In this document: in pieces, positions 17,070 through 30,074 of the stretch
Position numbering within the stretch: the first letter of the stretch is position 1
Layout: each line of letters starts with the position of its first letter
Source of the DNA: Bacteroidetes/Chlorobi group bacterium ChocPot_Mid
GTDB lineage: Bacteria > Bacteroidota > Ignavibacteria > Kapaibacteriales > UBA2268
Assembly (NCBI GenBank): GCA_003731675.1
Contig: RCNQ01000060.1
Span: forward strand, 1 to 36,435
DNA length: 36,435 bases
Reading direction: 5' to 3'
The notes under the pieces: generated by a model
What the model saw: the letters and a program-made list of their open reading frames with translations, nothing else
Databases searched by the model: none
What the model was told of the DNA's origin: nothing
Translations under genes and position numbers: made by a program

Positions 17070-18935
17070 ATGAAAGTCGGGCCGTTTGCAAATTTAACGC
17101 CGTTAGATTTTACTAAAAAGAAAAATTTAGAAAGACAAAAAGAAGCATTAAAATTAGTTCGTAAGAAATTAGGAAAAGAGTATCCGAATCTAATTGATGG
17201 TAAACCATCTGTAACCGAAAAGAAGACATATTCAATTAATCCAGCAAATCCAAAAGAAATAATTGGTATTTTTCAAAAGGCAGGTAAACAAGAAGCAGAG
17301 CAAGCAATAGAATCTGCAGCGAAAGCATTTGAAACTTGGAAATATGTACCTGCGGAACGAAGAGCGAAATATCTTCTGGATGCGGCAAAGATTTGTCGCA
17401 AGAGAAGATTTGAGATAAATGCATGGATGATTTCCGAAACAGGAAAGAATTTTGCTGAAGCTGATGCTGATACTTGTGAAGGTATAGACTTTCTCGAGTT
17501 TTACGCACGTGAAGCAATCCGGTATTCACAGGAGCAACCATTGACTCCATATCCGGGTGAAAAGCTTAGCTACTTTTATATTCCCTTAGGTGTTGGTCTT
17601 TGCATACCACCATGGAATTTTCCATGGGCAATTATGCTTGGTATTACAACAGCTGCAATTGTAGCGGGTAATACTGTGGTTATGAAGCCATCATCTGATT
17701 CACCAATGATGGCAAGGTTACTTACTGATATTTTGCATGAAGTTGGTTTGCCAAAGGGAGTTTTGAATTTCTTAGTAGCAAGTGGAGCAGAAGCAGGTGA
17801 TTTTATGGTCGAACATCCAAAGACAAGATTTATTACCTTTACAGGTTCAATGGAAGTTGGACTCAGAATCAACGAACTGGCAGCAAAGAAATCCGAAGGA
17901 CAGATTTGGATTAAAAGAGTAATTGCTGAAATGGGAGGTAAGGATTCTATCATAGTTGATTCGGAAGCAAAGATTGAAGATGCAGTAAAAGGTGTAACCG
18001 TATCTGCATTTGGGTTCCAGGGGCAAAAATGCTCTGCGTGTTCAAGGGCAATTGTTGACAAAAAAGTTTATGACGAATTTGTCGCAAAACTAAAAGTTGC
18101 AGTGGAATCTTTACAATCAGGTGATCCACAAGAAAACTTTTATTCCGGTCCTGTTATTAATGCGGCTTCTGAGCGTTCCATATTGGATTATATCGAAATT
18201 GGGAAAAAGGAAGGTAAGTTATTGACAGGTGGATATAAAATTCAGGAACTACCGGGTTATTATATTAAACCAACAGTGTTTATTGATATTGACCCGATGG
18301 CAAGATTATCTCAGGAAGAAATTTTTGGTCCGGTGTTAGCAGTTATAAAAGCTGAAAATTATGACCATGCTTTGCAAATTGCAAACAACACACAATATGG
18401 ACTGACTGGGGCAGTTTACTCAATGAACAGAGCAAAACTCGACAGAGCAAGAAAAGAATTTCATGTAGGTAATCTTTATTTAAATAGGAAATGCACTGGT
18501 GCCGTCGTAGATGTCCATCCGTTCGGGGGATTCAACATGAGCGGAACGGATTCGAAAGCTGGCAGCCGTGATTATTTATTGCTCTTTTTACAGGGCAAAT
18601 CTGTATCTGAACTAATTACTAATATCACAAAAGGGGTTAATATGCCAACAGCAAAGAAACCAGCAGCTAAAAAAGCTGCTCCAAAGAAACCAGCAGTTAA
18701 AAAAGCTGCTCCAAAGAAACCAGCTGCAAAAAAAGCTGCACCAGCTAAAAAAGCTGCACCAGCAAAAAAAGCCGCTCCTAAAAAAGTAGCTAAGAAAGCA
18801 GTTGCAAAGAAAACTACAGCTAAGAAAACAGTAGCTAAAGCCGCTCCTAAAAAAGCTGCACCAAAAAAAGCCGCTGCTCCTAAAAAAGCTGTAGCAAAAA
18901 AAGCTGCACCAAAAAAACCAGCAGCTAAGAAGTAA
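17070..18935 (+). CDS. pruA: L-glutamate gamma-semialdehyde (1-pyrroline-5-carboxylate) dehydrogenase fused in frame to a Lys/Ala/Pro-rich histone-H1-like tail
   Basis: RocA/PruA-type aldehyde dehydrogenase motifs: ETGKNFAEADADTCEGIDFLEFYAREA, EMGGKDSIIVD, GFQGQKCSACSRAIV, HPFGGFNMSGTDSKAGSRDYLLLFLQGKSVSE. There is no stop codon before the AKKAAPKKP repeat tail. An SD (AAAGGA) precedes the ATG at 17070. Confidence 0.9.
   Translation: MKVGPFANLTPLDFTKKKNLERQKEALKLVRKKLGKEYPNLIDGKPSVTEKKTYSINPANPKEIIGIFQKAGKQEAEQAIESAAKAFETWKYVPAERRAKYLLDAAKICRKRRFEINAWMISETGKNFAEADADTCEGIDFLEFYAREAIRYSQEQPLTPYPGEKLSYFYIPLGVGLCIPPWNFPWAIMLGITTAAIVAGNTVVMKPSSDSPMMARLLTDILHEVGLPKGVLNFLVASGAEAGDFMVEHPKTRFITFTGSMEVGLRINELAAKKSEGQIWIKRVIAEMGGKDSIIVDSEAKIEDAVKGVTVSAFGFQGQKCSACSRAIVDKKVYDEFVAKLKVAVESLQSGDPQENFYSGPVINAASERSILDYIEIGKKEGKLLTGGYKIQELPGYYIKPTVFIDIDPMARLSQEEIFGPVLAVIKAENYDHALQIANNTQYGLTGAVYSMNRAKLDRARKEFHVGNLYLNRKCTGAVVDVHPFGGFNMSGTDSKAGSRDYLLLFLQGKSVSELITNITKGVNMPTAKKPAAKKAAPKKPAVKKAAPKKPAAKKAAPAKKAAPAKKAAPKKVAKKAVAKKTTAKKTVAKAAPKKAAPKKAAAPKKAVAKKAAPKKPAAKK
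18642..18935 (+). other. Histone-H1-like Lys/Ala/Pro repeat domain. It may also be translated on its own from an internal ATG at 18642.
   Basis: MPTAKKPAAKKAAPKKPAVKKAAPKKPAAKKAAPAKKAAPAKK... (97 aa). AAGGGG sits 5 nt upstream of the ATG at 18642. The enzyme domain normally ends 2-3 residues after the VSE motif (from memory). Confidence 0.6.
18654..18743 (+). repeat. Three near-identical 30-bp in-frame tandem units (AAGAAACCAGCAGCTAAAAAAGCTGCTCCA), followed by degenerate 15-18-bp units to about 18932
   Basis: Units at 18654-18683, 18684-18713 and 18714-18743 differ at only a few positions. They encode KKPAAKKAAP. Confidence 0.9.
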
Positions 18936-19865: not shown

Positions 19866-22800
19866 ATGAAAAAAATATTACTTATTATTTGTTTTTTTAT
19901 TAGTATTAGCTTAACTAATAACAATATTTTTTGCAATGATGAACATTCGTGGGGACAAATTCTGAATGATAATTCTCTTATGCAAACAATAACAACATCC
20001 AATCCAAATGCGACTAAAGAGACAAAATGTATTTTGAATTATCTATATTCATTGAGTAAGAAAACCAATAAAAAAATTATAAGCGGACAAATGACATATA
20101 ATGGAATTGATGAATCTGTTGCATACGATAGTTTAATTGTAAAACTTCATGATAAAACAAATAAATGGGTCGGTATTGTCGGAGCAGACTATGAAAGAGA
20201 TTATCCACAAAAATTATATAAAATTCTTGAAACAAATAAACCATTAATTTCTCACTTTCGGCAAGGTGGTTTGGTCGCATTGATGTGGTCTGCAAATAAT
20301 CCATGGACTGGTGGGAATCAGAATGATTTAAGGAACAGCGAAAATCTTTTAGACCTAATAACAAATGGAACAACTGCCAATCAAAAGTGGATAGCATATC
20401 TTGATAGTATAGCAGTGGGTTTAAAACAGCTTCAGGATTCAGGAGTTGTCGTTCTTTGGAGACCATTACATGAGATGAATGGTACTTGGTTCTGGTGGGG
20501 TTCAAAGTCAACAACTTTACCTGATAGAAATGATTACATTTCTGTATGGAGACACATGTATAACTATTTTACTTATTTCAAAGGATTGAACAATATTTTA
20601 TGGGTTTATTCTGCAACAGCAAAATCAAAAAAAGTCTCAAATCCGGCTTTCAAGGATGAATTGAATAATTATCCGGGTGATGAATATGTTGATATAATTA
20701 GTGTTGATATTTATTCCGATACTTTAGACGTTGTTAATTACAATCAATTGAAATCTAAAGGCAAACCATTGGTTATTTCAGAATTTGGACCTGACCGCAA
20801 TACAGTTTTAAATAAAATTCAGTCATTTGATTATATGTCATTAATAAATCAGATTAAGTCAAAATATCCTGATTTTGTTTATTGGGTTTCATGGAATGAT
20901 TTTGTTACTAATGGTGGAAAAGATACAGTTTATTATTCCCCAATGAATCAAATTAATGGCAAACAGCTTTTAGAAGATGGTTGGGTAATAAATCGAGATG
21001 AAATTGGTTGGCAGGATAGTTGCAATATTGATGTTGAAAAAAATGCTTTGCTTGAACCCGAAGACGGAAAAGTATATCATGGCGTACAGACAATGACTTT
21101 TGCAGATAATCCAGACCCACTCGCAGGATATTTAAATGCTTTAAATGATTCAACAATTCAACCTGCTGTTCGAGGTTTCTTTTTCAGTGTTCCTGGTGAA
21201 CGTGGTCCGGCTAATACATTAAAAGGGCTAAATAATTTTTTTCACATTGCTGACTCAGTTGGATTCATACCCGAATTAAGTTTGTTTTTTGTTGATAACA
21301 GAAGTGCAACAGATAGCATAATAGCAGTATCAAATACACATGATTGGATACTTGACAGTATAATAACTTTATGTAAAAATTATAATCGGAAAATGTTTCT
21401 TCGAATAGGTGGAGAATTTAATGGTTCTGGACCTGGTTGGAATGGAGGAGGATATCATCCATATTACTATGTAACAATGTTCAGAAAAATTGTGAATATG
21501 TTTGCGAGCAAAGGTTTTAGGGATTCAATTGCTGTTAACTGGTGCTATGAACCAGATGCTCCCAATGATTTTGATTCAGTTGATACACGTGGAGCAAGAT
21601 GGTATCCGGGAGATGATTATGTAGATTGGTTTGGTTTGGATGTTTTTGATGCTTCTCATTTTGACCAATCATTGCCGAATGGTACAGGTAGAAACTTAAC
21701 CAAAAAAGGTAAATCCGAAAGATTTCTTGCTATGGCAAGGGAAAAAGGCAAACCAGTTTTCTTGAGTGAGACGTCTGCGAAAGGAATAAATATAAGTTCT
21801 GATAATCAAGATGGTATCAACGATTGGAACAACTGGTTTGCAAAGTTTTTCGAGTTTATTGATGTTCACAAAGAGATAAAAGGTTTTTGCTATATAGATG
21901 CAAACTGGCCTGTTGGTGCTTATCCTAATTGGGGTGATGCGAGGATAGAAAATAATACGTATGTTACCGAAAAGTACATTGAAGAAATGCGAAAACCTAA
22001 GTATATTAATTTGTATAAAGAGGTCATTGTCCAACCTGAAGATACTTTGCCCTTAACCGAAATGGGAGAAACAAAATGGAAAAGTTATGAAGGCGGATTA
22101 TATCCGAACGGCGAAAACGCGAGACCTGATGCTCATAATAGTGCCGGTATTGACTTTGCAAATTCAATAGTTCCATTGGATAATACTGGAGTGCCAAATG
22201 ATAAAGGTAAAATTGTTTTGTTATCAATTGGGATGTCGAATTGCACACAGGAATTTTCTGCTTTTAAGATGATAGCTGATACTTTTCAAATGAAGAATCC
22301 TAAATTGCAGATTGTTGATGGTGCACAAGGAGGTCAAACAGCTTCTATAATCAAAGACCCGTTAGCTAACTTTTGGACAGTTGTTGAGCAAAGATTGCAG
22401 CAACAAAATGTAACTGCTAATCAAGTACAGGTGGTTTGGTTAAAGGAAGCTAATGCACAACCAAACCAAGCATTTCCTGTTCATGCTCAAATGCTGAAAA
22501 GTGATTTGAAAATAATTGTTCAAGTATTAAAAAACAAATTTCCAAATTTAAAAATAGCTTATCTGTCGAGCAGGACATACGGCGGTTATGCCACATCAAC
22601 TCTTAATCCTGAACCTTATGCTTATGAATCGGGATTTTCAGTAAAGTGGCTCATTGAAGAACAAATAAGTGGTGATGATTCATTGAGATATTCTGGTGAA
22701 AGTCCAAAAGCTCCATGGTTATCTTGGGGTCCTTATCTTTGGGCAAAGGGAGAGAAAGAAAGAAACGACGGGCTATTCTGGTTAAGAGAAGATTTTGGAA

Positions 22801-23174
22801 CTGATGGCACTCATCCTTCAACGTCTGGTAGATTGAAAGTAGCTAAATTATTGCTTGATTTTTTCGTTAATGATGAAACTTCAAAACCATGGTTTCTTGG
22901 TAGTGATGTTAGAGTAAATGATTCAAATAAACAAGATAATATAATAAGTATTTATCCAAATCCAGCATCGGATTATATTGAATTAAAACTTTCTGAAAGT
23001 TTCGAACTTTCGGAAAATAATAGTATAAAAATCTATAATACTCTTGGGCAATGTGTTTTATCTGTTGGAGCAAATTCTAATGAGCTCAAACGAATTGATG
23101 TTTCGAATATGCCTATCAGTATTTATTTTGTGATTGTTGGTTCTGAAACAAAAAAAATTGTTATTGTAAAATAA
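19866..23174 (+). CDS. Secreted multi-domain carbohydrate-active enzyme: GH26 mannanase-like domain, a second GH26-like (clan GH-A) domain, an SGNH-type esterase-like domain and a T9SS C-terminal sorting domain
   Basis: Signal peptide MKKILLIICFFISISL. Domain 1 has WRPLHEMNGTWFWWG, YVDIISVDIY and KPLVISEFG (GH26 acid/base and nucleophile contexts). Domain 2 has LRIGGEFNG, YVDWFGLDVFD and KPVFLSETS. Domain 3 has IVLLSIGMSNC and DGTHPS (SGNH blocks I and V). The C-terminus (nt 22941-23171) reads IYPNPASDYIELKL...IKIYNTLGQCV, a T9SS CTD. Confidence 0.8.
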   Translation: MKKILLIICFFISISLTNNNIFCNDEHSWGQILNDNSLMQTITTSNPNATKETKCILNYLYSLSKKTNKKIISGQMTYNGIDESVAYDSLIVKLHDKTNKWVGIVGADYERDYPQKLYKILETNKPLISHFRQGGLVALMWSANNPWTGGNQNDLRNSENLLDLITNGTTANQKWIAYLDSIAVGLKQLQDSGVVVLWRPLHEMNGTWFWWGSKSTTLPDRNDYISVWRHMYNYFTYFKGLNNILWVYSATAKSKKVSNPAFKDELNNYPGDEYVDIISVDIYSDTLDVVNYNQLKSKGKPLVISEFGPDRNTVLNKIQSFDYMSLINQIKSKYPDFVYWVSWNDFVTNGGKDTVYYSPMNQINGKQLLEDGWVINRDEIGWQDSCNIDVEKNALLEPEDGKVYHGVQTMTFADNPDPLAGYLNALNDSTIQPAVRGFFFSVPGERGPANTLKGLNNFFHIADSVGFIPELSLFFVDNRSATDSIIAVSNTHDWILDSIITLCKNYNRKMFLRIGGEFNGSGPGWNGGGYHPYYYVTMFRKIVNMFASKGFRDSIAVNWCYEPDAPNDFDSVDTRGARWYPGDDYVDWFGLDVFDASHFDQSLPNGTGRNLTKKGKSERFLAMAREKGKPVFLSETSAKGINISSDNQDGINDWNNWFAKFFEFIDVHKEIKGFCYIDANWPVGAYPNWGDARIENNTYVTEKYIEEMRKPKYINLYKEVIVQPEDTLPLTEMGETKWKSYEGGLYPNGENARPDAHNSAGIDFANSIVPLDNTGVPNDKGKIVLLSIGMSNCTQEFSAFKMIADTFQMKNPKLQIVDGAQGGQTASIIKDPLANFWTVVEQRLQQQNVTANQVQVVWLKEANAQPNQAFPVHAQMLKSDLKIIVQVLKNKFPNLKIAYLSSRTYGGYATSTLNPEPYAYESGFSVKWLIEEQISGDDSLRYSGESPKAPWLSWGPYLWAKGEKERNDGLFWLREDFGTDGTHPSTSGRLKVAKLLLDFFVNDETSKPWFLGSDVRVNDSNKQDNIISIYPNPASDYIELKLSESFELSENNSIKIYNTLGQCVLSVGANSNELKRIDVSNMPISIYFVIVGSETKKIVIVK

Positions 23175-23452: not shown

Positions 23453-24784
23453 ATGGATGTTGAATTGTTAGCCAGAATACAATTCGGTATAACTGCCGGA
23501 TTTCATTTTTTGTTTCCACCGATGAGTATCGGTTTGGGAGTAATACTTGTAATAATGGAGTGGCGTTTTCTTAGAACAAAAAATATGCTTTACGAGAGAA
23601 TGGCAAAGTTTTGGACAAAAGTTTTTGCTTTGACATTCGGAGTTGGTGTAGCCACAGGTATAGTTATGGAGTTTGAATTCGGAACAAACTGGGCTACATA
23701 TTCAAGGTATGTAGGTGATATTTTTGGTTCACCACTTACCGCAGAAGCAATTTTTGCTTTTTTTCTTGAATCAACATTTTTAGGGATTTTGATTTTTGGT
23801 TGGAATCGGGTCAGTCCAAAAATGCATTTTTTTTCGACATGTATGGTTGCTCTTGGTGCAACTCTAAGTGCTTTTTGGATTATAGTAGCAAACTCATGGA
23901 TGCAAACTCCGGCAGGATTTCATATTGTTAATGAAGGTGGAATAATGCGTGCCGAAATTACTGACTTTTGGGCAATGGTATTCAATCCTTCAACTATTGA
24001 AAGATTTTCTCATGTAATAAGTGCATCATGGTTGACAGGAGCTTTCCTTGTGATGAGCGTTGCTGCTTATTATTTGGTAAAAAGGAGACATATTGATTTT
24101 GCAAAATCTTCGATGAGAATTGCTTTGTTTTTAGCTACTCTTGCGGCATTTTTGCAGCTTGAGACAGGTCACAGAAGTGCTATGGAAGTAGTGAAATATC
24201 AACCTGAGAAGCTTGCAACTTTCGAGGGGCATTTCAACACAGCTGTTTTAGATTTGTACTTTATCGGTTATCTGGATGTTGAAAATGAAAGGATAATTGG
24301 TTTGAAGTGGCCAGGGTTTTTATCTTGGTTGATTTACGGTGATTTTTCTGCTCCTGTCAAAGGTAGAAATGACTTTCCTAAAGATGAATTACCACCTATT
24401 CAACTTCCATTTCAGACTTATCATATTATGGTTGCTATTGGAATGGCATTTATAGGGATTGTCTTATTTAGCATCTTTTTGCTATGGAGAAAAAAACTTT
24501 TTGAAACGAAATGGTATTTGAAACTTTTGATACCTGCATTTGCATTGCCACATATAGCGAATCTTTGCGGATGGATTGCCGCTGAAGTTGGTCGTCAGCC
24601 ATGGGCTGTTTATAAAATATTAAGGACTGATGATGCGATTTCTAAAGTTGTAGCATCTTCAGAAGTTTGGTTTTCATTAATTCTATTTACAACAATTTAT
24701 ATTGTTTTATCAATTTTATTTGTATTCTTATTGTTAAAGAAAATCAAGCATGGACCTGAAGAATTTGAACCGTTAACCATGTAA
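23453..24784 (+). CDS. cydA: Cytochrome bd-type quinol oxidase subunit I (short Q-loop form)
   Basis: LARIQFGITAGFHFLFPPMSIGLG (His18), LTAEAIFAFFLESTFLG, FSHVISASW (His187), KYQPEKLATFEGHF, HIMVAIG and GWIAAEVGRQPW all fit CydA. Confidence 0.9.
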   Translation: MDVELLARIQFGITAGFHFLFPPMSIGLGVILVIMEWRFLRTKNMLYERMAKFWTKVFALTFGVGVATGIVMEFEFGTNWATYSRYVGDIFGSPLTAEAIFAFFLESTFLGILIFGWNRVSPKMHFFSTCMVALGATLSAFWIIVANSWMQTPAGFHIVNEGGIMRAEITDFWAMVFNPSTIERFSHVISASWLTGAFLVMSVAAYYLVKRRHIDFAKSSMRIALFLATLAAFLQLETGHRSAMEVVKYQPEKLATFEGHFNTAVLDLYFIGYLDVENERIIGLKWPGFLSWLIYGDFSAPVKGRNDFPKDELPPIQLPFQTYHIMVAIGMAFIGIVLFSIFLLWRKKLFETKWYLKLLIPAFALPHIANLCGWIAAEVGRQPWAVYKILRTDDAISKVVASSEVWFSLILFTTIYIVLSILFVFLLLKKIKHGPEEFEPLTM

Positions 24785-25779: not shown

Positions 25780-26907
25780 TTATCTCAGCATATATAGTTT
25801 ACCGTCATCACATCCGAAATAAATTTTTCTTTCGAAAATCACACAGCCACCAGTGATGGGTCCGCCTGTTTTATAATCGAAATATAATTTTCCAGTTCGT
25901 TTGTCGAGTGCGTAAATTTTATTGCCAAGGTCTCCGAAATACAGGACGGAATCGCAAATAATTGGTGATGAATAAGTCTCTGCATCTGTTTTATATGTCC
26001 ATTTCATTGTTCCGGTTTTCTTTTCAATTGCATAAAATAAATTACCGAAACCACCAACATATACCATGTTTTTATCAATTGCAGGAGAAGAGAACACAGA
26101 GCTTTCTGTAGCACATTCCCATCTTAATGCTCCTGTTTTTGAATTCAGAGCATATACATTTTTTCCCCAAGCACCAAAAAAAACTGTTGAATCATCGAGA
26201 GCAGGAGTTGAAGAGACACCTTCTTTTACCTGATATTTCCATAATTCACTGCCGTCTTTAATTTTCAGAGCATGCATATAACCAAAAGTATCACCAATGG
26301 AACCTATGTACAGTAGAGAATCTTTTAAAGCTGGACTTGAGCGGACTTCAGCTCCAATTTTCACTTTCCACACTTCAGTACCTTTAAGTGCATCCAAAGC
26401 ATAACAGAAACCATCGTTGCCTCCGAAGTAGAGCTTTCCTTTGAACTCCAGCGGAGAAGACCAGATGTAATTATTAGTTTTATATTTCCATCTCAATGAA
26501 CCATCGGTTCTGTTCAGGCAATACATATATTCATCATCGGAGCCGAAAAATATCAAACTGTCATTTAAAAATGGATTACTTGATATGTCCGAACCAACTT
26601 TATATGACCATAGAACTTTATGATTTTTCAAACTTATTGCATAAAGATTATTCGTATTGCCGCCAATGTATAAAATTGAATCATAAATTACAGGAGATGT
26701 TTTTATTGGTTCAATTGTTTTTAGAATGATGCTGTCTTTATTGATTTTTGTAATAGCTTTATCGTCGAAAATTCCCTGTCTTTGTATTCCGTTACGAAAC
26801 ATTGGTACAGTTTTAATTATTTTTACAGGTGGAGCATCACCGCAACCCATAACAAGCATCAAGGCAAATAAAGTCAATGCTTTTATGATTATTATATTAT
26901 TTCTCAT
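25780..26907 (-). CDS. PQQ-like beta-propeller repeat lipoprotein (BamB-like fold)
   Basis: Lipoprotein signal ALMLVMGC. Reiterated blades follow the pattern LYFGGNDGFCYALDALKGTEVWK / VFFGAWGKNVYALNSKTGALRWE / VYVGGFGNLFYAIEKKTGTMKWTY. Confidence 0.8.
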   Translation of the reverse strand: MRNNIIIIKALTLFALMLVMGCGDAPPVKIIKTVPMFRNGIQRQGIFDDKAITKINKDSIILKTIEPIKTSPVIYDSILYIGGNTNNLYAISLKNHKVLWSYKVGSDISSNPFLNDSLIFFGSDDEYMYCLNRTDGSLRWKYKTNNYIWSSPLEFKGKLYFGGNDGFCYALDALKGTEVWKVKIGAEVRSSPALKDSLLYIGSIGDTFGYMHALKIKDGSELWKYQVKEGVSSTPALDDSTVFFGAWGKNVYALNSKTGALRWECATESSVFSSPAIDKNMVYVGGFGNLFYAIEKKTGTMKWTYKTDAETYSSPIICDSVLYFGDLGNKIYALDKRTGKLYFDYKTGGPITGGCVIFERKIYFGCDDGKLYMLR

Positions 26908-27319
26908 AATTTAATTACTTTATTATGAAACATACCTAAAGTTCAAATATAAGAAAATTTATTGAAATGGAAGAAGTCTGAAGCAATGATTAATCTGATT
27001 GAATGAAAACATTGATTACCGTTCAATTATTGTACTAAGTTGTAAATAGTAGGTAAAAATGAGCATTTTGTAACTATTTTTATTCATGTGATTTAAAAAC
27101 TTCCATAAAATATTTGTACCAATTGTACCGAGTTTTTGCAATTTTCATTTTCCTAGGTCAGTTATCTGTTTTCTGTTAATTCATACAACATTAAATTATA
27201 TTGCAAAGAACATGCTGAACAAAATTAAGGGATGGGAATGAAACGTAATTTATTTTATTTTGAAATGGTTTTTATTTTGTTTTCGGTGAGAACGTGAAAA
27301 AGCGAAACGTGAAACGAAA

Positions 27320-27368
27320 GACAGAAGTCAGGAGACAGAAGTCAGGAGACAGAAGTCAGGAGACAGAA
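27320..27368. repeat. 14-bp tandem repeat GACAGAAGTCAGGA, 3.5 copies, inside a ~90-nt purine-rich tract (27293-27385)
   Basis: Copies at 27320-27333, 27334-27347 and 27348-27361, plus a partial copy at 27362-27368. Reiterated GAAACG lies upstream (27303-27316) and reiterated ATAGAA(A/G)A downstream. Confidence 0.9.
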
Positions 27369-27501
27369 AATAGAAGATAGAAAATTTAGAATTCAAGTCA
27401 AATTTTCCATCTTTCAAAATATTGAAAATATTATTTGGAAATGTGAGAAATATTTCGTAAATAGAAAAAATATTTATTAACAAAATTTATTAATAATTTT
27501 T

Positions 27502-27508
27502 AAGGAGG
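27502..27508 (+). promoter_or_regulatory. Strong Shine-Dalgarno site (AAGGAGG) for the 27514 CDS
   Basis: taAGGAGGatgttATG, with a 5-nt spacer. Confidence 0.75.
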
Positions 27509-27513
27509 ATGTT

Positions 27514-28128
27514 ATGATATTTCCCGGTGGCTGGAACGATTTGGTAGTGCAAGAACCAAAGCGAATAAAACCAATCATCTCAGTTGCACAAATCCACGAT
27601 GGCTCTGCTTATTACAATGGTGAAGTTGTTCTTAGTTCAGAATATTTTTTACCTTCAGGTGGCAGTTGGACAAGTAACCCCTTTGTCTTAACAGACGAAC
27701 CAAAAGTTGTTGCCGTTAACAGTGGTATATTCTTTAATGAAGGTTTTAGGGCAATGGCTATGAATCAACAAACCAAAATGTCGAATATAAGCGATGCACC
27801 ACCACCTATGAGCAATTTACTTTTTTTATATGGTAATAAAAATGGTGATTTGAAATATAGAATTGAAATCTATATAAACTTTGGTTTAAGCGAATTTCCT
27901 TATGTGGAATTGTCGGTAATGGAGAATGCTGCAGGTACAGGTGGAGCAAATGGTGTTGTCGAAGTATTTCGTTTTGAAAAATCGAATTTTACCGGATTAC
28001 ACACATTGCATCTGTTTTTCGACAATTATTTTGGTCATGTAAATCTAGGATTAAGAGCAGAAGATTCACTTTCTAATTCATCAATATTTGAGATGAAATG
28101 CGTCATATTGGATGCTGAAACTATCTAA
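27514..28128 (+). CDS. Hypothetical protein, 204 aa, no recognisable family, no signal peptide
   Basis: Long ORF with a near-perfect SD. The stop codon overlaps the SD of the next gene. The composition looks mostly beta-strand-like. One Cys. Confidence 0.75.
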   Translation: MIFPGGWNDLVVQEPKRIKPIISVAQIHDGSAYYNGEVVLSSEYFLPSGGSWTSNPFVLTDEPKVVAVNSGIFFNEGFRAMAMNQQTKMSNISDAPPPMSNLLFLYGNKNGDLKYRIEIYINFGLSEFPYVELSVMENAAGTGGANGVVEVFRFEKSNFTGLHTLHLFFDNYFGHVNLGLRAEDSLSNSSIFEMKCVILDAETI

Positions 28129-28139
28129 AGGAGAACTCC

Positions 28140-28892
28140 ATGAACACTTATTACAATAGTTCTCCGAGTATTGATATGATTTTGCCAAAACCAAAATCAG
28201 CAACATCTTCAAAACCGGGATGTGTTAATTGCGGTTTGGATATAATTTCACCGGGTATAACAAAAACCGATATCTTGAATTCACCAAGTTACCAGTTAAT
28301 AATGGGTGATCAATTGATGAGTACTCTACATCCCAATAAACCACCATGGTATAATCTTGAGCTTTGGATTTCTGAATTATTTTGGAGTGATGATGCTTCA
28401 AAATGGAAATGCTTAAAATTCGACAAAGAAAGAAAAAGATGGTATTATGATAATAGATATGAATTAGATGCTAGGCCAGTAGTAGTAAAATATCAAGTAT
28501 CTGAATTAGACGGTATGAAAATTTCTTCAGGTTCATTGATTATACAAAATATGACAAAAGTTCAATCTGATACCGAACACGGTCTAGACGCGACTAGGAA
28601 ATTTCCTATTAGAGTACCAACAGATAGAAGAGTTAAAATTGATATTTGGATTATTCTTCCATGTGGTGTTTGTTGTAATATTGATATAGAACATTCACAA
28701 CCTGGTAAAAAAAGAACAATTCATAGAGAATTTACTTTTAATTATGATGATTATGTCATTGAAGAAGAAAGAAAAAAATTTGGAATTTGGGTAATTGAAA
28801 GATCAGTTGTTCATGATTATGATGATATGGGTTGTATTGATGATCATAATTGTCCAATGCCAGAAACAAAGATTCCAGATCCGATTGAATAA
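28140..28892 (+). CDS. Hypothetical protein, 250 aa, Trp- and Cys-rich, no recognisable family, no signal peptide
   Basis: An SD (AAGGAG, 28128-28133) overlaps the upstream TAA, with a 6-nt spacer. Eight Cys, including CVNC (28/31), CGVCC (175/178/179) and C-x5-C (232/238). Seven Trp. Confidence 0.75.
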   Translation: MNTYYNSSPSIDMILPKPKSATSSKPGCVNCGLDIISPGITKTDILNSPSYQLIMGDQLMSTLHPNKPPWYNLELWISELFWSDDASKWKCLKFDKERKRWYYDNRYELDARPVVVKYQVSELDGMKISSGSLIIQNMTKVQSDTEHGLDATRKFPIRVPTDRRVKIDIWIILPCGVCCNIDIEHSQPGKKRTIHREFTFNYDDYVIEEERKKFGIWVIERSVVHDYDDMGCIDDHNCPMPETKIPDPIE

Positions 28893-28922
28893 TGTGTAAT
28901 ATTGAATTATTTTCCGAATGCT

Positions 28923-30074
28923 ATGAAAAGAATTTCATTAGTAATATTATTATTTGTTTATTATAATTTATATTCACAAATAACGTTCGAATCTGAATCA
29001 GACAAAAATTGCTATTACAATTTTCTTAATAATGATATTAAAATCGAAGAAGGATTAATTAAAAATGAGAAAGAAATTTCTACAAATTCTGATACTTTGG
29101 AATTTGAAATACTTGATTCATTTGATTTGCATCGAGATCATTTGCATGATTTAACTTATGGTGATGGATTTTTATGGATTATAAGAAGTAATGAATCTGA
29201 ATATGATACAATATTTAAAATTAATCCTGTTAATGGAGAGATTGTTAATTTGTATCAAATACCCCTTCCTTTGTCTTACTGGTCGCAAGGTTTAGCATGG
29301 GATAGTACGTCTTCAGGTGGTCCATACTTTTGGTTTACAACTGATAATCCAAAAAATGAAATATATCAAATGAAAGTTTCTGATTTTGAAATAATTAAGA
29401 GATTTAAATCACCAGAAATTTATTCATATGGCATAGATTTCCTAGATAGTTGTGTCTGGATTACAGTAAGTGGAAATAATGCTAAGCTATTTAAATTTAA
29501 TATAATTACAGAAATCTTTGATACTATTATTAATTTAATAGAGAACTCTAATAGGTTTTGTTTTAGTAGTAAAAAATCGTTAATTTGGGTACATCAACAT
29601 AATTTTCCCTTCAATATGAATTTAGTGTTTCTATTGGATATAAAAACAGGGTTATCTTTAAAATGTTACAGAACACCACTAATAAATTTTGCCGGAATAA
29701 CGATTGATAAGAATTCTTTAAATGGACCATTTCTATGGTTTTCAGATTTTAGAACTGGCATGATTTATAAAGTTAAAGAACCTATTATCAATAGTATTGA
29801 CACAAATATTATTCAAAGAAACAATATTACTATTATTACAAACCCATTTGAAGACGAAGCAACACTTAAAATAGAAATCCAAAATAGTTCATTAGTCAAG
29901 TTAGATGTTTTCGATTTACTTGGCAAAAAAATTATTAATTTAGTTGATGAATATCTCAAATCTGGAACTTATGAATTCACTTTCGACGGCTCTTCTTTAG
30001 CCAGCGGTGCATATTTCTTAGTCCTGCAGGCAGACGGAAAAGTGGAAACAGGTAAGTTGGTTTTGATTAAGTGA
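28923..30074 (+). CDS. T9SS-secreted protein with a beta-propeller-like repeat region (possibly glutaminyl-cyclase-like fold) and a C-terminal sorting domain
   Basis: Signal peptide MKRISLVILLFVYYNLYSQ from the ATG at 28923 (the ORF opens at a TTG at 28902). Repeated blade-like motifs: HDLTYGDGFLWII, SQGLAWDS..YFWFT, SYGIDFLDSCVWIT, FAGITIDKNSLNGPFLWFS. The C-terminus (nt ~29826-30071) reads ITNPFEDEATLKIE...GAYFLVLQADGKVETGKLVLIK, a T9SS CTD. Confidence 0.7.
   Translation: MKRISLVILLFVYYNLYSQITFESESDKNCYYNFLNNDIKIEEGLIKNEKEISTNSDTLEFEILDSFDLHRDHLHDLTYGDGFLWIIRSNESEYDTIFKINPVNGEIVNLYQIPLPLSYWSQGLAWDSTSSGGPYFWFTTDNPKNEIYQMKVSDFEIIKRFKSPEIYSYGIDFLDSCVWITVSGNNAKLFKFNIITEIFDTIINLIENSNRFCFSSKKSLIWVHQHNFPFNMNLVFLLDIKTGLSLKCYRTPLINFAGITIDKNSLNGPFLWFSDFRTGMIYKVKEPIINSIDTNIIQRNNITIITNPFEDEATLKIEIQNSSLVKLDVFDLLGKKIINLVDEYLKSGTYEFTFDGSSLASGAYFLVLQADGKVETGKLVLIK

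Follow-up and report, generated by a model that had tools for sequence, protein, structure and literature searches.

A lineage-restricted gene cassette with a constant beta-sandwich protein, a modular partner and an exported third gene: a candidate polymorphic effector system

The window examined here (the whole stretch of DNA that was analysed, 36,435 nt of contig RCNQ01000060.1, assembly GCA_003731675.1, from Bacteroidetes/Chlorobi group bacterium ChocPot_Mid) carries three consecutive same-strand genes, which we call A, B and C and which represent an undescribed, lineage-restricted, three-part cassette family. Gene A is constant among relatives; gene B is modular, joining a conserved N-terminal module to exchangeable C-terminal domains; A and B are real genes, the gene order is conserved, and the third gene carries export signals. 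We tentatively interpret A-B-C as a single cassette belonging to a polymorphic, lineage-restricted effector system of the Ignavibacteria, Kapaibacterium, Chlorobiota and Bacteroidetes group, where A may act as carrier or adaptor, B as the polymorphic effector and C as its cognate immunity-like partner. A first-pass annotation of the window had described A and B as a translationally coupled pair of family-less cytoplasmic proteins that heads an operon and forms an undescribed functional module. The coupled pair stands, but the module proved larger than that: the annotation missed C as a third operon member, and it overlooked that the C-terminal domain of B is swapped and that the A domain is linked to lanthipeptide precursors.

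A constant gene A and a modular gene B

The reading frames of A and B (204 and 250 aa), their Shine-Dalgarno matches and the junction between them are as first annotated. The ATG of A (27514) lies 5 nt after AAGGAGG, and that of B lies 7 nt after an AAGGAG that overlaps the TAA of A (28126-28128), leaving a junction of 11 nt; in relatives the junction measures 0 nt (L012/L013), 11 nt (L001 and L008) or 12-15 nt (L024, L049 and L020). Compared with a 90%-identical relative, A has a ratio of nonsynonymous to synonymous substitution rates (dN/dS) of 0.03 at a dS of about 1.8 (synonymous sites near saturation). For B against a 67%-identical relative the ratio is 0.095, rising to 0.15 in the C-terminal domain. 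Both are thus real genes under purifying selection, strong in the case of A, and the pair is genuine and tightly coupled, as had been proposed. A public gene call (P0006, 238 aa) starts B at Met13; the start at 28140 is better supported, since P0007, P0008 and P0009 all retain the sequence ahead of Met13 (SPSIDM).

Neither protein contains a 19-residue stretch above a mean Kyte-Doolittle value of 1.55, in agreement with the earlier statement that both lack a signal peptide and a membrane helix. Searches of Pfam, NCBIfam, PADLOC and PHROGs at E<=1 returned no match for A or B, and PDB sequences gave nothing significant, so the pair is absent from the curated family, defence and structure-sequence libraries queried. 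"Family-less" holds for those libraries only. A word-indexed search among 5.8 billion proteins found five relatives each of A and B, one of those of A bearing the name "Bacteroidetes/Chlorobi group bacterium ChocPot_Mid". A profile built from the relatives of A, searched against 1.84 billion cluster representatives, matched 96 proteins at E<1e-3, of which 49 stay below E<1e-10; most are of ~200 aa, giving a family of at least 96 representative clusters. No Pfam or NCBIfam domain was matched by A or by 62 family members. By these profile matches A belongs to a sizeable yet unannotated family; neither A nor B is an orphan.

Among GTDB species representatives a distant branch of the A family occurs at 33 loci, often in several copies per genome, and its hosts are mostly metagenome-assembled genomes (MAGs) of Candidatus Kapaibacterium, Chlorobiota, Ignavibacteria and Bacteroidetes, with a few bins that bear the label Armatimonadota or Proteobacteria. 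For the branch to which the window belongs, these species representatives hold no close relative; it is known from metagenomes only. A homologues lie on bacterial contigs of 60-650 kb, and no relative was found in IMG/VR viral contigs.

An AlphaFold2 model of A from a 62-sequence alignment is confident (predicted local distance difference test (pLDDT) score 93.4, predicted template-modelling score 0.86; an alignment of five sequences gave pLDDT 54) and folds as a ten-stranded beta-sandwich with one long helix. Foldseek searches of PDB and BFVD with this model returned generic immunoglobulin (Ig)-like sandwiches only, at query-normalised template-modelling (TM) scores of at most 0.34, among them RhoGDI, SoxYZ, the C-terminal domain of sulfite oxidase and the Y_Y_Y domains found in hybrid two-component sensors. 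The fold class of A is therefore ordinary, with no specific relative known. PDB matches of the A profile to the Ika8/Tako8 designed propellers and to an encapsulated ferritin were short and repeated or weak, contained no passing stretch, and were set aside as spurious.

B divides after residue 55. Residues 1-55 (SPSIDMILPKPK...GCVNCGLDIISPGITK.DI.NSPSYQ) are conserved in four relatives: P0007 and P0008 match B over its full length, and P0009 and P0010 have only residues 1-55 in common with it (76-84% identity there) before continuing with different sequence. One N-terminal module is thus joined to three C-terminal types, that of the window (P0007/P0008), that of P0009 and that of P0010. The boundary is equally visible in the DNA, where the window and locus L001 align at 82% identity in one uninterrupted block (27414-28303) that takes in the leader, A, the junction and B codons 1-55 and ends at 28303.

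At L001 the gene order is A, a first B gene (P0010), a gene for a 140-aa lipoprotein-like protein, a second B gene (P0009) and a gene for a C-like protein of the type IX secretion system (T9SS), so that two successive pairs of B and partner stand behind a single A. At L006 the 3' end of the C gene, which encodes the T9SS C-terminal sorting domain, is present as a 102-bp copy just upstream of B (L006 269-370 and 2232-2333). The B-C unit is thereby bracketed by a direct repeat, and a further B-like gene follows it. The repeat suggests insertion or duplication of the cassette through recombination at the sorting-domain sequence.

The eight Cys of B (residues 28, 31, 91, 175, 178, 179, 232 and 238) form CxxC, CxxCC and Cx5C motifs plus one single Cys, and together with seven Trp they were counted correctly in the first-pass annotation. 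The Cys of the three motifs are kept among B homologues. This pattern, the up to 28 Cys of proteins in the B position at other loci and the exported third gene fit a protein rich in disulfides and working outside the cytoplasm; for the cytoplasmic location first given to the pair, and for the metal or redox centre first suggested for B, we found no evidence.

Gene order, partner families and the exported third gene

We called open reading frames (ORFs) in all fetched loci, flagged A homologues with the family hidden Markov model and clustered their neighbours by all-against-all BLASTP. At almost every locus the next gene shares the strand of A. A same-strand protein of at least 180 aa directly follows the A homologue at 28 non-redundant loci, with junctions that range between a 40-nt overlap and a gap of about 300 nt (usually <130 nt). 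Only one of these 28 downstream genes has an N-terminal hydrophobic segment, as scored by a crude hydrophobicity test. The adjacency persists at 25-40% A identity, across differing flanks and in several MAG lineages, a positive outcome for the co-occurrence check that the first-pass annotation had put forward. The flanks themselves are unrelated, locus-specific housekeeping genes, as expected for a dispersed cassette.

The genes in the B position fall into at least six unrelated families and encode proteins of 250-640 aa. Members of one (f2) are 437-603 aa long in the usual position after A, with one 266-aa stand-alone copy in L049; they have 15-28 Cys, a hydrophobic segment, invariant CxxHDxxC and CCxxHDxxxxC motifs and SCLCGG..PT. 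A protein search for further relatives of the f2 core yielded one protein. Two others (f4/f7, 313-411 aa) have an HExxH motif, intact in three members (HELVH, HEMLH and HELIH; L019, L025 and L033) and degenerate in the rest. A 638-aa Gly-rich protein, flanked by three A paralogues, gave a sub-threshold match to Phage_lysozyme (E 4e-4 to 2.5e-3). Further families are f54 and f84, and the window type forms f3. Several of these families begin with a short N-terminal F[ND]FGPxLGP[LI] motif followed by a Gly/Pro-rich linker (regular-expression enrichment 11/36 against 4/483, for a pattern defined post hoc). The C-terminal domains of B-position proteins matched no catalogued toxin family.

Two observations at individual loci deserve mention. 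In the 185-aa protein P0044, half of an A protein, the N-terminal one, is fused to the C-terminal end of a partner of the f2 type; the chimera arose either from a natural deletion that joined the two genes or as an artefact of assembly. At L008 alone, a gene for a single-AAA ClpB/ClpV-like ATPase (AAA_2 plus ClpB_D2-small, 443-451 aa; L008 7909-9240, minus strand) lies ~750 nt upstream of the A gene in divergent orientation, with a 77-aa ORF in between.

The gene after B differs from that after A in its export signals: an N-terminal hydrophobic segment is present at 19 of 23 loci, compared with 37% of other ORFs (Fisher p 2e-5). It also follows the B family. Family f4 is paired with f24 and f7 with f55, and C goes with the window type; behind f2 genes come those for lipoproteins, for small proteins like outer-membrane barrels or for exported propellers, and behind f54 genes those for BNR/Sortilin propellers with T9SS tails.

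In the window, C begins 9-30 nt past B, at a TTG (28902) or at an ATG (28923, MKRISLVILLF...), the latter being the likely true start. Residues 313-387 match the T9SS sorting domain (PF18962, Por_Secre_tail, E 5.9e-8; TIGR04183, E 4.4e-9), and from Met8 the protein reads MKRISLVILLFVYYNLYSQ, which we judged by eye to be a signal peptide, although the crude hydrophobicity test scored C negative. With this by-eye signal peptide, C has both features of type A T9SS cargo. Its body is propeller-like on weak Pfam matches only (DUF6923, E 0.044; Reg_prop in the L001 counterpart). In L006 and L001, too, this B type has a gene of the C type behind it. Identity between C and its counterparts is 47% where B has 67%, and 26-31% where A has 90%; by these alignments the rate of evolution of C far exceeds that of A or B.

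Lanthipeptide-type tails, the proposed mechanism and its rivals

Approximately 20 members of the A family extend beyond the sandwich into C-terminal tails, 14 of which contain 2-7 Cys. P0019, with the tail ...SLNLNKEVITQHSKPLLSLTNTGTIKITCNQNSCNPDNTCFSCVSCGDKCF..., is encoded directly upstream of genes for a Peptidase_S41 protein, for a LanC-like protein and for LanB in split form (Lant_dehydr_N, Lant_dehydr_C; L052/L053), and a second A paralogue precedes it. P0031, whose tail contains RFNLDNV, is directly followed by a LanC-like gene (L055/L056, LanC only); its locus also holds a near-identical paralogue with a diverging tail and a tail-less A. The tail of P0017 contains an exact LxLxKx5L, and the next gene encodes an erythromycin-esterase-family protein, not Lan enzymes. 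LxLxKx5L is the leader motif of class I lanthipeptide precursors of Bacteroidetes (PMC7268733). In some lineages, then, the A domain forms the constant N-terminal portion of apparent lanthipeptide precursors. The tailed proteins, two of them upstream of LanC or LanB/LanC, would make it the constant N-terminal part of exported products.

The clusters themselves (L052 2813-10417 and L055 717-4341) are of class I lanthipeptide type, with apparent precursors of 280-300 aa made up of an A domain and a Cys/Ser/Thr-rich tail. Another A-family protein, P0056 (290 aa), has a tail of three tandem ~28-aa units (RTITIEEAIAESGGHQQGS.P.GG...), like a multi-core precursor. The A of the window has no tail: it ends with the beta-sandwich and has one Cys, and thus no Ser/Thr/Cys-rich core. 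Lan enzymes, radical SAM proteins and other enzymes for RiPPs (ribosomally synthesised, post-translationally modified peptides) are absent from the 36-kb window and from the flanks of 30 loci with stand-alone A.

The B N-terminal module resembles the P0019 tail at two places (SPSIDMIL and SPSLNLNK; GCVNCG and SCVSCG). Since BLASTP of B(1-58) against that tail gives E 0.14 and a profile of the module detects nothing outside its own clade, lanthipeptide-type tails included, this resemblance is a lead and no result. Equating the module with a lanthipeptide leader box or with the F[ND]FGPxLGP[LI] motif is statistically unsupported.

Four features lead us to propose that A binds and delivers B: A is constant; its partner is exchangeable and lacks a signal peptide; the exported third protein follows the partner's type; and in other lineages A carries tails in cis. 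In our tentative reading as an effector cassette, A would be the constant part, a 200-aa beta-sandwich made in the cytoplasm, which would be co-translated with B, may bind its N-terminal module and would hand that module on to an export route whose genes lie in another part of the genome. B would be the cargo, a conserved module of ~55 residues with an exchangeable Cys-rich C-terminal domain that may be toxic and probably acts outside the producer's cytoplasm. C would be the exported, T9SS-sorted partner specific to this B domain, most simply a protective protein of the immunity type. Together the four features follow the logic of carrier-linked effector cassettes and polymorphic toxins.

Several observations weigh against this reading. 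The B domain of the window has no assignable activity, and no relationship is detectable between the window-type N-terminal module and either the F[ND]FGPxLGP[LI] motif seen in distant B families or lanthipeptide leader boxes. The fold of A resembles generic Ig-like sandwiches alone. The toxin-like features of relatives amount to short motifs and one sub-threshold Pfam match; a phospholipase A2 assignment for the Cys-rich f2 family with its CCxxHD motif, suggested by "PCxG...CCxxHDxxxWC", which we took to be a phospholipase A2 motif, found no support from Pfam or PDB-sequence profiles and is a lead only. Our screen of A, B, the window and the flanks of the loci for secretion systems and trafficking domains found no secretion apparatus, DUF1795, DUF4123, DUF2169 or Hcp/VgrG/PAAR protein. 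Finally, a surface immunity protein delivered by the T9SS would be unusual.

The main rival takes its cue from the tailed A proteins. In a RiPP-type module, A would be a stand-alone long leader or scaffold domain and B a substrate, modified at its N-terminal CxxC segment or in its Cys-rich body and exported by enzymes encoded elsewhere, so that the outcome would be a modified product and no toxin-immunity pair. The location of tailed A proteins directly upstream of Peptidase_S41, LanC and split LanB genes or of LanC speaks for such a role, as do the tail-less A copies ahead of tailed ones in both clusters (L052/L053 and L055/L056), the tandem precursors in L055 with identical A domains and divergent tails, and the FNLD (P0031) and LxLxKx5L (P0017) boxes. 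Yet the A of the window has neither tail nor more than one Cys, RiPP enzymes are missing from all the stand-alone loci surveyed, the module profile misses the tails, and the B-position proteins, at 250-640 aa, are enzyme-like and far above the size of a RiPP core; we therefore consider this account unlikely. An anti-phage defence or abortive-infection system, with A as constant sensor and B as interchangeable effectors, would typically show the same organisation, with a constant partner for swapped effectors and several cassettes per genome scattered among housekeeping genes. It is improbable, however, given that A, B and C have no match in PADLOC-DB 2.0 at E<=1, that relatives are missing from IMG/VR contigs, that no nucleotide-binding or nuclease domain is present, that the third gene is exported, and that proteins with 15-28 Cys or a lysozyme-like domain are implausible as cytoplasmic suicide effectors. 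A viral capsid or small integrated virus, considered on account of short contigs, Lys-rich tails and a weak match of B to a single-stranded RNA phage coat protein (E 0.051), was rejected because of the long bacterial contigs, the empty IMG/VR search and the lack of a specific BFVD fold match.

The metal-binding or redox centre that the first-pass annotation read into B would imply a stoichiometric cytoplasmic two-protein complex. Tight translational coupling and the conserved CxxC, CxxCC and Cx5C Cys agree with this, but no rubredoxin, zinc-ribbon, thioredoxin or Fe-S family was matched even at E<=1, the Cys-bearing C-terminal domain is swapped for unrelated domains in close relatives, and hydrolase-type motifs occur in partner families found at that position, all of which makes such a complex quite improbable. 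That A and B are lineage-specific hypothetical genes whose adjacency reflects shared descent and no joint function is very improbable. The five homologues each recovered by the word-indexed search would suit it, but it is largely refuted by neighbourhood and selection data: adjacency is kept down to ~25% A identity amid unrelated flanks in several MAG lineages, junctions remain short and selection is strong.

A broader conjecture would join the effector cassette with the tailed proteins. The A domain might be the recognition handle of an undescribed export pathway in Ignavibacteria, Kapaibacterium and Bacteroidetes, serving both small lanthipeptide-type peptides fused to it in cis and folded, disulfide-rich protein toxins carried in trans through a short docking module at their N-terminus, and would then be a carrier common to RiPP and polymorphic-toxin biology. 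We regard this as distinctly unlikely.

If the effector interpretation is true, it would add a new organisation of interbacterial weapons in a poorly studied, mostly uncultured group, comprising a beta-sandwich carrier of 200 aa not seen before, a short targeting module that is likewise new, and several candidate families of toxins and immunity proteins, also new, all absent from Pfam, NCBIfam and PADLOC. An A domain heading lanthipeptide precursors would, if true, extend the long-leader concept of the NHLP (nitrile-hydratase-like) and Nif11 families to a third, structurally different domain, and could give genome miners a handle on unusual RiPP precursors now lost to length filters. A further question is how diderm Bacteroidota-like bacteria export such products.

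Leader, genomic surroundings and known systems

Features of the cassette and its leader are collected below.

Table 1. Cassette features and their positions in the window
Feature	Position	Strand	Remark
Purine-rich tandem repeat of the leader, AGACAGAAGTCAGG x 3.6	27319..27368	.	Perfect repeat
Conserved proximal leader of A, including TTGAAAATATTATTTGGAAAT	27414..27513	+	82% identity to L001
Shine-Dalgarno sequence of gene A, AAGGAGG	27502..27508	+	
Gene A, 204 aa, constant component	27514..28128	+	Proposed carrier/adaptor
Shine-Dalgarno sequence of gene B, AAGGAG	28127..28132	+	Overlaps the A stop codon
B N-terminal conserved module, residues 1-55	28140..28304	+	Proposed docking/targeting
B variable C-terminal domain	28305..28892	+	Proposed effector; present only in P0007, P0008 and, distantly, P0009
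Gene C, exported, propeller-like, T9SS-sorted	28902..30074	+	Proposed immunity-like partner

The unusual repeats noted in the leader at first reading are there, as a perfect 14-nt tandem repeat each unit of which contains an SD-like AGGAG (SD, Shine-Dalgarno). In the 90%-identical relative at L001 the equivalent position (L001 7700-7890) is taken by another purine-rich repeat (GGGAGAAGGGAAAA-like), far longer than that of the window and read as an 84-aa ORF in a public gene call; the two loci differ in the repeat and agree in the conserved sequence that flanks it. The element TTGAAAATATTATTTGGAAAT (27423-27443) recurs in L001 and L007, ~70-90 nt before the A start, and may serve the cassette as promoter or operator. 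No Rfam family reached its gathering score in the leader, and no terminator-like sites were found there.

A convergent UvrD/PcrA gene follows C, and the rest of the window is housekeeping, as first described: ScpA, ScpB, a RecN-like protein, alanine racemase, an aldehyde dehydrogenase, a SpoU methylase, a GH26 enzyme, cytochrome bd subunit I, a class II aminoacyl-tRNA synthetase and a short-chain dehydrogenase/reductase of the enoyl-ACP-reductase type. The G+C content is low, at 27-28%, in the 3' half of B and throughout C, compared with 36% in A and 33% in the window. Near the cassette, the GH26 enzyme (19866-23174) is an exported protein of 1102 aa with a T9SS sorting domain, and directly upstream of the leader, on the opposite strand, lies the gene for an exported propeller lipoprotein of the BamB/PQQ type (25780-26907). 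Elsewhere in the window, the aldehyde dehydrogenase (17070-18935) has a Lys/Ala-rich C-terminal tail like those of histone H1/HC2, encoded by tandem repeats of 15-30 nt (18652-18917); cytochrome bd oxidase subunit I (23453-24784) has no adjoining subunit II ORF and neighbours a DUF2807 protein; and an ORF at the window edge (10-771) matches the C-terminal part of McrBC, a restriction system component.

Among known systems, a close parallel in layout is with the adaptor/effector/immunity cassettes of type VI secretion systems (T6SSs), in which an Eag-DUF1795 or Tap-DUF4123 adaptor or an Hcp/PAAR protein stands upstream of a cargo effector and exported immunity genes stand downstream. Common to both are the order of a constant small protein, an effector without signal peptide and an exported type-specific partner, the swapping of effector C-terminal domains, the scattering of several cassettes per genome among housekeeping genes, and "evolved" forms of the constant protein with C-terminal extensions. 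Unlike T6SS adaptors, A and 62 members of its family match no DUF1795, DUF4123, DUF2169, Hcp or PAAR family in Pfam or NCBIfam; the A model is unlike Hcp, with the low Foldseek scores against PDB given above; and no T6SS gene lies in any flank. The sole hint of a T6SS in Ignavibacteria is a transcript report for one MAG (PMC8099898).

The cassettes also recall polymorphic toxins in several respects. A conserved N-terminal region precedes alternative, unrelated C-terminal domains in the B clade, toxin-partner pairs occur in tandem (L001), and repeats flank a cassette (L006). Such polymorphic toxin systems are meant here in what is reportedly the sense of Zhang, Aravind and co-workers (2012). 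The downstream gene, specific to the B family and exported at 19 of 23 loci, would take the immunity role. The differences are that the B module spans only ~55 aa and matches no known trafficking domain, that the C-terminal domains find no match among catalogued toxin families, that there is an additional constant gene A, and that neither a trafficking domain nor a secretion system accompanies A or B, in the window or in the flanks.

Long-leader RiPP precursors of the NHLP and Nif11-like leader families, said to have been described by Haft et al. in 2010, are matched in one respect by the relatives of A, whose domain is a conserved N-terminal part before variable, short, Cys/Ser/Thr-rich tails. 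As in class I lanthipeptide precursors, tailed A proteins stand beside LanB/LanC and their tails have FNLD or LxLxKx5L boxes. A differs from NHLP and Nif11 in being a ~200-aa beta-sandwich with no sequence relation to them (no NCBIfam match at E<=1), and the A of the window differs from lanthipeptide precursors in being separate, with neither tail nor core and no RiPP enzymes within 36 kb. The LanB/LanC neighbourhood by which a LanA is recognised is absent from the window, present for P0019 (L052/L053) and partly present for P0031 (L055/L056). Gene C, finally, departs from T9SS cargo in its propeller-like body, which has weak Pfam matches only, but resembles such cargo at both ends, in its N-terminal signal peptide (by eye) and its type A C-terminal sorting domain.

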